Source of the DNA: Candidatus Bilamarchaeaceae archaeon
Lineage (GTDB): Archaea; Micrarchaeota; Micrarchaeia; Anstonellales; Bilamarchaeaceae
Direction of reading: 5' to 3'
DNA: 12,379 nucleotides
Assembly: GCA_038851325.1 (NCBI GenBank)
Contig: JAWCKZ010000017.1
Span: forward strand, 1-12,379
How positions within the stretch are numbered: position 1 is the stretch's first letter; each line of letters begins with the position of its first letter. Positions 6,954-9,205 of the stretch are shown here, one piece after another. The notes beneath the pieces were generated by a model, which saw nothing but the letters and a program-made list of their open reading frames with translations, was not told where the DNA came from and did no database searches. Made by a program: the position numbers and the translations under genes.

Positions 6954-7263
6954 ACAGCCAATTCTAAAGACGTGCTTTCCAAAATTCGTATGCAGAGATC
7001 AACTCCAGTTGATCCTGCTGGAGGGTACTGCTATCGGACTCCGACTAAGCCATGCATGTCTACGGCTGGACTTCTAGCCGTGGCGGAATGCTGAGTAACA
7101 CGTAGTCAACCTAACCTAAGGACGGGGACAACCTCGGGAAACTGAGGACAATCCCAGATAGGCGATGGGGACTGGAACGCCTCATCACCGAAATGGCTGG
7201 TGAATTGGAGCCAGTCCGCCTTAGGATGGGACTGCGGGGGATTAGGTAGTTGGTGAGGTAACG

Positions 7264-7304
7264 AATTTTTCAGCGATTTTTAGAAAGCGTTGGAAAATTT
7301 ACAG
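7264..7304 (+). other. 16S intron 1 (family A, 41 nt, about E. coli 265)
   Basis: Strict BHB: helix GTAA/TTAC, bulges CG|A and AG|G, outer stem GGTGAG/CTCACC. Restores GGTAACGGCTCACC. Confidence 0.92.
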
Positions 7305-7393
7305 GCTCACCAAGCCGATAATCCCTAGGGGCCATGGGAGTGGTGGCCCCCAGAGGCACACTGAGACAAGGGTGCCAGCCCTACGGGGTGCAG

Positions 7394-7435
7394 ACGTGCG
7401 ACAGCACCGATGTATGGTGATGGAACACGGCATAA
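7394..7435 (+). other. 16S intron 2 (family B, 42 nt, about 354)
   Basis: Helix GTGC/GCAT, bulges AG|A and AA|C, relaxed outer side. Restores CCTACGGGGTGCAGCAGG. Confidence 0.9.
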
Positions 7436-7550
7436 CAGGCGCGAAACCTCCGCAATGCGCGCAAGCGTGACGGGGGGAGTCCGAGTGGCGACAACTTTGT
7501 TGTCGTCTTTTGCCGAGTGTAAGCAGCTCGGAGAATAAGGGTGTGGGCAA

Positions 7551-7591
7551 ACACAAAACGCGCACGATATATGGACGCGTGAGTGGTTCAA
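7551..7591 (+). other. 16S intron 3 (B-related loop GATATAT, 41 nt, about 509)
   Basis: Helix GGGC/GTTC, bulges AA|A and AA|G. Restores GGGCAAGACTGGTG. Confidence 0.88.
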
Positions 7592-7607
7592 GACTGGTGG
7601 CAGCCGC

Positions 7608-7650
7608 ACGCTATTTGTTCAGGTTTTTAGGAAGGCAAATGGCGGGCTAG
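7608..7650 (+). other. 16S intron 4 (family A, 43 nt, about 525; 530 loop)
   Basis: Helix AGCC/GGCT, bulges GC|A and AG|C. Restores CAGCCGCCGCGGTAA. Confidence 0.92.
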
Positions 7651-7734
7651 CGCGGTAACACCAGCGCCTCAAGTGGTACCCACGAATATTGGGCCTAAAG
7701 CGTCCGTAGCCGGTTTGGCAAGTCTTCTGTGAAA

Positions 7735-7777
7735 AGATGTTGCCTCGTGGAGCGATTTGCGAGACTTCGTCTCACAA
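7735..7777 (+). other. 16S intron 5 (family C-like architecture, 43 nt, about 609)
   Basis: Helix GTGA/TCAC, bulges AA|A and AA|T, inner stem GATG/CGTC. Restores GTGAAATGTTGGGG. Confidence 0.88.
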
Positions 7778-7789
7778 TGTTGGGGCTCA

Positions 7790-7831
7790 ACGCATGACAG
7801 CGCCGATGTATGGCGATGGAATGCGGGTTAT
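7790..7831 (+). other. 16S intron 6 (family B, 42 nt, about 621)
   Basis: Helix GGCT/GGTT (wobble-rich), bulges CA|A and AT|A. Restores GGGGCTCAACCC. Confidence 0.9.
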
Positions 7832-7992
7832 ACCCTAACGCGTGCAGAAGATACTGCCTGACTCGGGAGCGGGGGAGGGCAGGGGTACACCCGGGGTAGG
7901 GGTAAAATCCGTTGATCCTGGGTGGACCACCAGTGGCGTAGGCGCCTGTCCAAAACGCGTCCGACGGTGAGGGACGAAAGCTGGGGGAGCGA

Positions 7993-8037
7993 AACACGAG
8001 ATAGCCAGGTTTTTAGGAAGGGCTACCGAGTGTTCAA
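7993..8037 (+). other. 16S intron 7 (family A, 45 nt, about 781; boundary +/-1)
   Basis: Helix GAGC/GTTC, bulges GA|A and AA|A. Restores GGAGCGAACGGGATTAG. Confidence 0.88.
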
Positions 8038-8126
8038 ACGGGATTAGATACCCCGGTAGTCCCAGCTGTAAATTATGCAGACTTTGGTGTTACGCGCGAG
8101 TAATCGCGCGTAGTGCTGTAGCGTAG

Positions 8127-8161
8127 ACACACACTGTCGAACGACGAAGAGTGTGGCGTAA
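8127..8161 (+). other. 16S intron 8 (unassigned family, 35 nt, about 866)
   Basis: Helix GCGT/GCGT (with G-U pairs), bulges AG|A and AA|G, inner stem CACAC/GTGTG. Restores GCGTAGGTGTTAAG. Confidence 0.85.
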
Positions 8162-8312
8162 GTGTTAAGTCTGCCGCCTGGGGAGTACGATCGCAAGATT
8201 GAAACTTAAAGGAATTGGCGGGGGAGCACCACAAGCCGTGGATGCTACGGTTCAATTGGATACAACGCCGGGAACATCACCAAGGGCGACGGCAGCATGA
8301 AGGCCAGACTAA

Positions 8313-8357
8313 ACAAGGTCTGAGGGTTTTTAGGCACGTACTCAGACCTTGGTTCAA
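8313..8357 (+). other. 16S intron 9 (family A, 45 nt, about 1015)
   Basis: 11-bp inner stem CAAGGTCTGAG/CTCAGACCTTG; helix GACT/GTTC has one mismatch; bulges AA|A and AA|A. Restores CAGACTAAAGATCTTG. Confidence 0.8.
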
Positions 8358-8414
8358 AGATCTTGCCTGACAAGCCGAGAGGTATTGCATGGCCATCGTC
8401 AGCTCGTGGCGTGA

Positions 8415-8456
8415 ACGCGTGACAACGCAGATTTATTGCGGTGGAACGCGGTGTAA
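8415..8456 (+). other. 16S intron 10 (family B, 42 nt, about 1080)
   Basis: Helix GCGT/GTGT (wobble-rich), bulges GA|A and AA|A. Restores CGTGAACTGTCC. Confidence 0.9.
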
Positions 8457-8470
8457 ACTGTCCGGTTAAG

Positions 8471-8517
8471 ACCTTTGAAATGTAGCGCATTTCAAAATTT
8501 GCTACCAAAGGTAGCAA
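8471..8517 (+). other. 16S intron 11 (family C, 47 nt, about 1094)
   Basis: Helix GTTA/TAGC, bulges AG|A and AA|T, inner stem CCTTTG/CAAAGG. Restores GGTTAAGTCCGGCAACGAGCG. Confidence 0.92.
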
Positions 8518-8656
8518 TCCGGCAACGAGCGAGACCCATGCCCATAGTTGCTAATCTCTTCTCCGGAAGGGATGCACTCTACGGGGACTGCCCGCGTTAA
8601 GTGGGAGGAAGGAGTGGGCGACGGTAGGTCAGTATGGTCCGAAACCCTTGGGCTAC

Positions 8657-8701
8657 ACACGAGGTTCGGGTTTTTAGGAGTGCACGAACCGAGTGGGCCA
8701 C
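8657..8701 (+). other. 16S intron 12 (family A, 45 nt, about 1226; first of a tandem pair)
   Basis: Helix GGCT/GGCC, bulges AC|A and AC|A, inner stem CAC-GA-GGTTCG/CGAACC-GA-GTG. Confidence 0.88.
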
Positions 8702-8743
8702 ACGCATGACAGCGCCGATGTATGGCGATGGAATGCGGGCCAC
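8702..8743 (+). other. 16S intron 13 (family B, 42 nt, about 1226; second of a tandem pair)
   Basis: Follows intron 12 directly; helix GGC(C/T)/GGCC, bulges AC|A and AC|A. Removing both restores GGGCTACACGCGG. Confidence 0.88.
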
Positions 8744-8837
8744 ACGCGGCATACAATGGGTGGAACAATGGGTTGCGACTCCGAGAGGAGAAGCTAATCC
8801 CCTAAATCCACTCTCAGTTCGGATTGAGGGTTGCAAC

Positions 8838-8881
8838 ACAAGGTTCAACCAGGTTTTTAGGAAGGGTTGAGCTTGGGCAAA
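8838..8881 (+). other. 16S intron 14 (family A, 44 nt, about 1320)
   Basis: Helix TGCA/GGCA (3 of 4 pairs), bulges AC|A and AA|T. Restores GTTGCAACTCACCC. Confidence 0.85.
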
Positions 8882-9044
8882 TCACCCTCATGAAGCTGGA
8901 ATGGCTAGTAATCGCAGGTCATCATCCTGCGGTGAATGTGTCCCTGCTCCTTGCACACACCGCCCGTCAAGTCATCCAAATGTGTTTTCGGTGAGGCCCC
9001 GGTTATTGCCGGATTCGAACCGAAGATACGTGAGGAGGGCTAAG

Positions 9045-9088
9045 AGCTTTGAGCTGGTGCTCAAAATTTGCCAGCCAAGGGCTAGCAA
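9045..9088 (+). other. 16S intron 15 (family C, 44 nt, about 1494; decoding site)
   Basis: Helix GCTA/TAGC, bulges AG|A and AA|T. Restores AAGTCGTAACAAGG. Confidence 0.92.
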
Positions 9089-9108
9089 TCGTAACAAGGT
9101 ATCCGTAG

Positions 9109-9150
9109 ACGCATGACAGCGCCGATTTATGGCGATGAAATGCGACGGAA
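9109..9150 (+). other. 16S intron 16 (family B, 42 nt, about 1514; helix 45)
   Basis: Helix CCGT/ACGG, bulges AG|A and AA|G. Restores CCGTAGGGGAACCTGCGG. Confidence 0.92.
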
Positions 9151-9205
9151 GGGAACCTGCGGATAGATCACCTCCAAATTTTATTTGAGCGTGCGAGGAA
9201 GCACA

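Follow-up and report, generated by a model that had tools for sequence, protein, structure and literature searches.

Short introns bounded by bulge-helix-bulge (BHB) motifs are known from the 16S rRNA genes of several archaea, and here we describe a 16S rRNA gene that is interrupted by 16 inserts of this kind. The gene lies in a stretch of 12,379 nucleotides from Candidatus Bilamarchaeaceae archaeon (GenBank assembly GCA_038851325.1, contig JAWCKZ010000017.1, positions 1 to 12,379 of the forward strand), hereafter called the window. The closest described system is that of Jay and Inskeep (2015; PMC4496867), who found BHB introns that are short (<50 nt) and form hairpins at 7 of 13 16S loci in Thermoproteales, Desulfurococcales and Aigarchaeota. 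In Micrarchaeota, insertions in the 16S gene are on record for ARM-1, ARMAN-2 and Mia14 (PMC8784108, PMC5498576), and group I introns are known in the rRNA of DPANN archaea (PMC6125680). Disrupted tRNA genes together with a three-unit, epsilon2-type splicing endonuclease EndA have been reported for ARMAN-2, Candidatus Micrarchaeum acidiphilum (Fujishima et al. 2011; PMC3239211), and transposition of tRNA introns was proposed for Thermoproteales in a 2010 study cited in a review (PMC4090602). The sources named here were accessible in part, and the comparisons made with them in this paper hold for those parts.

The inserts of the window gene resemble the short introns of Jay and Inskeep in size class, in the lack of an open reading frame (ORF), in the hairpin, in the BHB motif at the junction and in their placement at conserved 16S positions. 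A preliminary description of this DNA had spoken of a distinct micro-intron system occupying many unreported sites. The first half of that claim has to be given up, since short hairpin 16S BHB introns had already been described (PMC4496867), while the second half is borne out, 13 of the 15 distinct sites being absent from the 13 loci given in the accessible part of that report; only loci 781 and 1093/1094 coincide with window sites. The two systems differ further in density, the 13 loci of Jay and Inskeep being spread over many taxa, whereas here 16 introns occupy 15 sites in one gene and 27 occur in that of a relative. They differ also in host, a DPANN archaeon with an epsilon2 EndA as against a crenarchaeon with an (alpha-beta)2 enzyme, and in that no homing-endonuclease intron stands nearby here to carry the short introns. 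The Micrarchaeota insertions share with the present case the phylum, the host gene and the position 1093, but they are single and long (522 bp with an ORF in ARM-1), whereas here there are many ORF-free micro-introns (PMC8784108, PMC5498576). ARMAN-2 has the same EndA type, its tRNA genes are heavily interrupted as well, and its BHB motifs too are relaxed and stand at non-canonical positions; the account of it concerns tRNA introns, whereas the predicted substrates here also include 16S, 23S, 5S and signal recognition particle (SRP) RNA (PMC3239211). As in the tRNA introns of Thermoproteales, near-identical introns at different positions of different genes suggest copying between sites, but the families found here cross rRNA, SRP RNA and tRNA genes and have a modular build (PMC4090602). 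The present case stands out by its density, by its Micrarchaeota-like DPANN lineage, by the grouping of the introns into sequence families and by their occurrence in further stable RNA genes. A full-text literature search, with most subscription journals outside it, returned no report of many micro-introns in one DPANN rRNA gene, and none of BHB introns in 5S or non-permuted SRP RNA genes.

A 16S rRNA gene interrupted by 16 short inserts

The Rfam archaeal small subunit (SSU) model matched the window at 7002-9069 with 984.5 bits and many long insertions, and a separate scan of the 3' part alone extended the 3' end of the gene to 9176.

7002..9176, + strand, 16S rRNA gene: 17 exons, 1492 nt once the inserts are removed

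A genome of the same genus (G003) carries an intron-free 16S gene of 1491 nt. Global alignment of the window gene with it gave 92.6% exon identity with a single 1-nt gap, and 15 gaps of more than 10 nt adding up to 683 nt, one of which (87 nt) represents two abutting inserts. The split into 16 inserts of 35-47 nt and 683 nt in total, as given in the preliminary description, was thereby reproduced.

For each insert all phases yielding the identical spliced product were tried, and canonical BHB geometry was scored in each: four exon nucleotides and two bulge nucleotides, the cut, one bulge nucleotide, the hairpin, four nucleotides pairing to the exon, two bulge nucleotides and the second cut. 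The central helix below is that between exon and intron tail, the inner helix that of the intron itself and the outer helix that between the two exons. Sites in the list that follows are given in E. coli numbering, obtained by aligning the spliced form to E. coli rrsB in a three-sequence alignment (±1-2), and the sequence families A, B and C were defined by BLAST of the introns against the genome together with reading of the sequences. G numbers denote genomes of relatives.

7264..7304, + strand, intron 1, 41 nt, site ~265: central helix 4/4, inner 11 bp, outer 8 bp; G006 has a similar intron at this site
7394..7435, + strand, intron 2, 42 nt, site ~354: family A; central 4/4
7551..7591, + strand, intron 3, 41 nt, site ~509, common to G005, G006, G007, G014 and G020: central 4/4
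7608..7650, + strand, intron 4, 43 nt, site ~525 (530 loop): family B; central 4/4, inner 11 bp
7735..7777, + strand, intron 5, 43 nt, site ~609, where G005 and G006 have homologous introns: central 4/4
7790..7831, + strand, intron 6, 42 nt, site ~621: family A; central 4/4; a 12-nt exon lies between introns 5 and 6
7993..8037, + strand, intron 7, 45 nt, site ~781: family B; central 4/4
8127..8161, + strand, intron 8, 35 nt, site ~866: central 4/4; other cores at this site in G006, G011, G014 and G016
8313..8357, + strand, intron 9, 45 nt, site ~1023: family B; central 3/4, inner 11 bp
8415..8456, + strand, intron 10, 42 nt, site ~1080: related to family A; central 4/4
8471..8517, + strand, intron 11, 47 nt, site ~1094: family C; central 4/4
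8657..8701, + strand, intron 12, 45 nt, site ~1226: family B; central 4/4; adjoins intron 13
8702..8743, + strand, intron 13, 42 nt, site ~1226: family A; directly behind intron 12; central 4/4, the upstream strand being the tail of intron 12
8838..8881, + strand, intron 14, 44 nt, site ~1320: family B; central 3/4
9045..9088, + strand, intron 15, 44 nt, site ~1494, adjacent to the decoding centre: family C; central 4/4
9109..9150, + strand, intron 16, 42 nt, site ~1514: family A; central 4/4

Site ~1226 is used twice, and the 16 introns thus occupy 15 distinct sites; some of the exons between them measure merely 12-20 nt. In its best phase every insert begins with A (16/16), and every one is a compact hairpin that ends in four exon-pairing nucleotides followed by two bulge nucleotides. 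The central helix is complete (4/4) in 14 inserts and 3/4 in inserts 9 and 14, so that its 64 pairs comprise 47 Watson-Crick pairs, 15 G-U pairs and two mismatches, and an inner helix of at least 3 bp is present in 15 of the 16. Removal of the inserts leaves 1492 nt and rebuilds conserved 16S motifs at all 16 junctions. The initial A, the hairpin, the four-nucleotide tail with one mismatch in two inserts, and a regenerated 16S of about 1491 nt had all been claimed beforehand, and our scoring agreed on each point.

Such pairing was rare in the controls. When 200,000 random placements were scored in the window, 4/4 pairing with an inner helix of at least 2 bp occurred in 0.3% of them. Sliding the 3' site by 1-3 nt left 4/4 pairing in 0-1 of the 16 inserts, and tails matched non-cognate exons at 4/4 in 18 of 236 pairs, as compared to 14 of 16 cognate pairs. 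When the entire window was scanned with Rfam at gathering thresholds, only SSU rRNA and SRP RNA were returned, and no group I or II ribozyme core. Cores of either group cannot fit in 35-47 nt.

Inserts in the 16S genes of relatives

The 16S genes of 21 relatives with a full-length match were compared, counting inserts of at least 12 nt. Their number was highest in a genome of another genus of the same family (G014), with 27 inserts totalling 1194 nt, followed by 10 in G006, six each in G007 and G034 and fewer elsewhere, down to zero in G003, G018, G022 and G039.

G014:C3:20937-23522, 16S rRNA gene of G014: 27 inserts, the highest count among the relatives examined

Congeners with exons 92-94% identical to those of the window lack the window inserts. 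Of the 15 window sites, 12-13 recur in at least one relative, other genera included; at sites 621 and 1320 no insert was seen in the relatives examined. In ten independently assembled relatives, 56 inserts of 30-60 nt could be scored. A 4/4 central helix together with an inner helix was found in 31 of them, at least 3/4 with an inner helix in 40, and the first base was A in 42.

At shared sites the tails vary in a telling manner. Site 828 shows four tail variants over five genomes and site 466 three over six genomes, all of them pairing at 4/4, and at site 1036 exon and tail change jointly. Since the tails at shared sites vary only with pairing kept, the BHB motif appears to be under selection and hence used, which is the best available sign of its function.

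Predicted splicing enzymes and mode of removal

The preliminary description had predicted an endonuclease of broad specificity, and such an enzyme was found in the genome of the window (G000; 899,799 bases in 18 contigs, 90.9% complete). It is an EndA of the epsilon2 type (391 aa) with the EndA N-terminal and catalytic domains, residues 4-391 of which match the ARMAN-2 EndA (PDB 4fz2) over its full length with an E value of 4.5e-130. An epsilon2 EndA is present in all 41 relatives searched, and G000 also encodes an intact RtcB ligase (559 bits). The ARMAN-2 enzyme cleaves strict as well as relaxed BHB motifs in vitro (PMC3239211).

A second EndA-like protein is encoded elsewhere in the genome.

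G000:C8:39847-40308, second EndA-like protein, 154 aa: EndA catalytic-type domain only (Pfam, 36 bits)

Within the family, 23 of 24 genomes encode this paralog; no copy was found in the intron-free G003. A link between the paralog and intron load was considered and rejected, as G018 and G022, whose 16S genes are without inserts, carry it too.

In the mechanism that we propose, the last six exon bases, the hairpin and the six-base tail would fold in the primary rRNA transcript into two 3-nt bulges around a 4-bp helix. The epsilon2 EndA is predicted to cut after the second base of each bulge, RtcB would then ligate the exons into a normal 16S rRNA of 1492 nt, and it would probably also circularise the excised intron. 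The inserts are thus very probably ordinary protein-spliced, short-hairpin BHB introns at extreme density, removed by the epsilon2 EndA and RtcB.

Several observations weigh against this view. The outer exon-exon helix has 3 bp or fewer in 15 of the 16 inserts and at least 4 bp in one, so that the inserts depart from the strict hBHBh' form with flanking helices on both sides; most motifs are therefore relaxed and need an enzyme tolerance that has been tested solely on tRNA substrates. Free-energy folding of the introns with their flanks returned the exact BHB pattern in 5 of 16 cases, and the minimum-energy fold beat shuffled sequences (z of -2.8 or lower) in 7 of 16. Among the 56 inserts of relatives, 16 fell below 3/4 pairing with an inner helix under automatic phasing. 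Finally, RNA of this organism was not found among the RNA runs searched, none of which held more than 12% of the sampled words. On the other side, the relaxed form of the motif is accepted in organisms with (alpha-beta)2 or epsilon2 enzymes (PMC3239211), free-energy folding is too weak a test for a 4-bp helix, and the misses among the relatives may be due in part to alignment error, the reference being 82-94% identical. The preliminary interpretation therefore stands in its BHB geometry at all 16 sites, in its relaxed junctions and in its broad-specificity EndA, and falls in the word distinct; splicing itself we infer from the motif and the enzymes.

Intron families and their modular build

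Family A comprises introns 2, 6, 13 and 16, with intron 10 related to it, family B introns 4, 7, 9, 12 and 14, which have the loop motif GGTTTTTAGG in common, and family C introns 11 and 15. Within family A, introns 6 and 16 show 2 differences in 36 core positions as compared to 5 in 6 tail positions (Fisher p = 1.4e-4), and for introns 6 and 13 the figures are 0 in 36 and 3 in 6. In family B, nine copies (five in the 16S and four in the 23S gene) are 98% identical in the 10-nt loop motif and 36% identical in the adjoining eight stem bases, while the closing stem is kept in all nine (2-11 bp as scored). The build is modular: the core or loop stays constant from copy to copy, whereas the basal stem and the tail are specific to the site.

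7621-7631, 8007-8017, 8324-8334, 8668-8678 and 8851-8861, family-B loop GGTTTTTAGG; also at four places in the 23S gene (G000:C13)

This loop is almost invariant though the stems around it are unrelated, and it contains a run of five T. Such a run can serve as an archaeal termination signal. Outside the two rRNA contigs the motif was matched 19 times, with no pairing stem in the flanks as judged by eye.

Inserts in other stable RNA genes

The 23S rRNA gene of the same genome (G000:C13:5569-9220) measures 3652 nt as compared to 2911 nt in G003, and holds ten insert regions with a total of 775 nt. Families A and B are among them, and pairing is 4/4 in the best phase for six of the ten. Two of the 23S inserts, of 263 nt and 130 nt (gene positions 1834-2096 and 3055-3184), have a repeated module in common and may be composite or nested introns. 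By eye, the module seems to recur in long introns that adjoin D-loop introns in two tRNA-like genes (C8 near 30900 and C4 near 65700).

A single insert each was found in the 5S rRNA gene and in the SRP RNA gene, the latter within the window.

G000:C3:12255-12411, 5S rRNA gene, 157 nt: holds a 42-nt family-A insert
G000:C3:12318-12359, - strand, 5S insert, 42 nt: family A; central helix 3/4 (read by eye)
2525..2825, - strand, SRP RNA gene (Rfam, 93 bits)
2627..2671, - strand, SRP RNA micro-intron, 45 nt: family C; in the GGAA tetraloop of helix 8

The central helix of the SRP RNA intron is 4/4 Watson-Crick with an inner helix of 6 bp, and its first base in the fitting phase is T (read by eye). 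The intron is missing in four of four congeners. The 5S insert is likewise missing in all three matching congeners, its flanks being contiguous in G005 and G001 and the whole match spanning 114 nt in G003. A core like that of the 5S insert is present elsewhere in G003 (C32:4558-4593).

Two tRNA-like genes carry family-A inserts in the D-loop, and the tRNA model gave only 16 matches in G000. The RNase P RNA gene (G000:C1:80486-80691) contains no insert; with 206 nt against a model of 288 positions, its RNA is a reduced form.

Origin and spread of the introns

A few intron families interrupt the 16S, 23S, 5S, SRP RNA and tRNA genes of G000 and would have multiplied within the lineage, by a route that can be read in two ways. 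In the first, which we regard as a real possibility short of a probable one and which concerns origin alone, the introns have long occupied their sites, passed on by vertical descent with frequent loss, and their cores became common through gene conversion or module exchange and not by jumping. That relatives from other genera have inserts at 12-13 of the 15 sites fits such a history, as does site 828, where base and tail are alike in G000 and G006 but the apical core differs. The contrast in family B between a 98% identical loop and 36% identical adjoining stems over nine copies points the same way. Shared sites, exchanged cores and invariant loops therefore favour conversion among resident introns. 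Neither a reverse transcriptase nor a Y1 transposase was found: searches with RVT_1 and Y1_Tnp had no match in G000 (91% complete; these two families were the ones searched), which does no more than weaken the idea of retro-transposition or Y1 transposition. Long residence accords poorly, on the other hand, with the absence of the SRP RNA intron from 4/4 and of the 5S intron from 3/3 matching congeners, with two 16S sites seen in G000 only, and with intron 13 standing in tandem behind intron 12. The SRP RNA, 5S and tandem inserts look like fresh insertions of whole introns and therefore favour transposition.

The second reading, that of active spread, we put forward tentatively and consider less likely than not. 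Here the micro-introns would be active modular hairpin elements, rather than passive remnants, spreading through 16S, 23S, 5S, SRP RNA and tRNA genes, with BHB splicing as a safe harbour. Some factor would copy or exchange the invariant apical module (the GGTTTTTAGG loop in family B, the GA-rich internal loop in family A), while the basal stem and the four-nucleotide tail would be fitted to each target, so that introns would have proliferated under a permissive enzyme by a transposition route not described before. Two familiar forms of mobility were rejected. A model with target-site duplication fails as the tails complement the exon rather than copy it, and a hairpin DNA transposon, whether a miniature inverted-repeat transposable element or of the IS200/IS605 type, fails for want of a target-site duplication and of a match to Y1_Tnp, the transposase family searched, in G000 (91% complete). 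A 6-nt direct repeat was seen only at the tandem introns 12/13, and a 4-nt part of it is palindromic.

DNA and RNA runs and the fate of the inserts

Two DNA runs labelled hot-springs metagenome (X1 and X2), which may include the source sample, were searched as Logan contigs. Their contigs cover introns 1, 3-5, 9-11 and 13-15 with 0 differences, and one X2 contig (record 21) crosses from intron 12 into intron 13, again with 0 differences. Absence of the inserts from DNA reads, like an intron-free 16S gene elsewhere in the genome, had been named beforehand as evidence that would tell against introns; the contigs carry the inserts, and G000 (899.8 kb, 91% complete) shows a single SSU match.

In two RNA runs (X5 and X11) contigs join across introns 1, 5+6, 8 and 10+11 and carry the predicted micro-exon letters. 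They show 2-5 differences per piece and so resemble intron-free relatives. Words of the introns were not found in X5 and X11, and the intron-only bins checked (8682-8762 and 9006-9086) were uncovered. These contigs are indistinguishable from those of intron-free relatives and speak neither for nor against splicing.

The inserts might be cut and the pieces left unligated, as in some organelles and protists, leaving a 16S rRNA of up to 16-17 base-paired fragments. An exon-exon junction read from this organism is missing, as such fragmentation would have it, and exons of 12-20 nt are unusual as ligation substrates. Yet the genome has an intact RtcB, a fragmented rRNA would have little to hold exons as short as 12-14 nt, and the same introns stand in tRNA and 5S genes, ligation being the rule for tRNA. 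The products of EndA, a 2',3'-cyclic phosphate and a 5'-OH, are moreover the natural substrates of RtcB, which also weighs against unligated fragments. We therefore regard fragmentation as improbable as compared to splicing and ligation.

Retention of the inserts in the mature rRNA as expansion hairpins appears more improbable still. Every insert is a compact hairpin, a form typical of expansion segments. However, several of the inserts split conserved single-stranded sites, among them the 530 loop and the bases beside A1492/A1493, and sites ~525, ~1494 and ~1514 are universally conserved single-stranded centres. A retained insert at conserved functional centres of the ribosome is hard to reconcile with function, and retention in the mature rRNA is therefore unlikely. 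The hairpins are also missing in congeners with 92-94% identical exons, and their tails co-vary with the exon as BHB pairing requires, which would be needless in a retained hairpin. Equally improbable is a dead gene copy or an assembly artefact, which a metagenome-style assembly of 18 contigs and 91% completeness might suggest, for the gene is the sole SSU match in G000, its intact exons align to those of the congener at 92.6% identity with a single 1-nt gap, the inserts recur with 0 differences in independent contigs from two DNA runs, and like inserts stand at the same sites in relatives.

Implications for ribosome biogenesis and rRNA surveys

If the introns are spliced as predicted, each small subunit would call for 32 cuts and 16 ligations, and that of the relative with 27 inserts for 54 cuts. 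EndA and RtcB would then be core enzymes of ribosome biogenesis in this lineage. The intron families, their presence or absence in congeners, and the tandem and apparently fresh insertions in SRP RNA and 5S genes would also make the lineage a system for studying the spread of protein-spliced introns.

The 16S gene is flanked by a long stem, which is probably the processing stem of the pre-rRNA.

6926..6953 with 9206..9234, + strand, flanking stem of the 16S gene: three helices (11, 6 and 7 bp) set apart by bulges

The stem is BHB-like without having the canonical 3-4-3 form, and the role given to it here is deduced.

The introns at E. coli positions ~354, ~525, ~781 and ~1494 lie inside or beside what we take to be the binding sites of common 16S survey primers. 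For this reason amplicon surveys may miss or mis-size organisms of this kind. Intron-rich rRNA genes also score poorly with standard models, the SSU model giving 984 bits for the window gene and 594 bits for that of G014 as compared to about 1450 bits for intron-free relatives, and further long, low-scoring 16S genes were present in a wider sample of the phylum.

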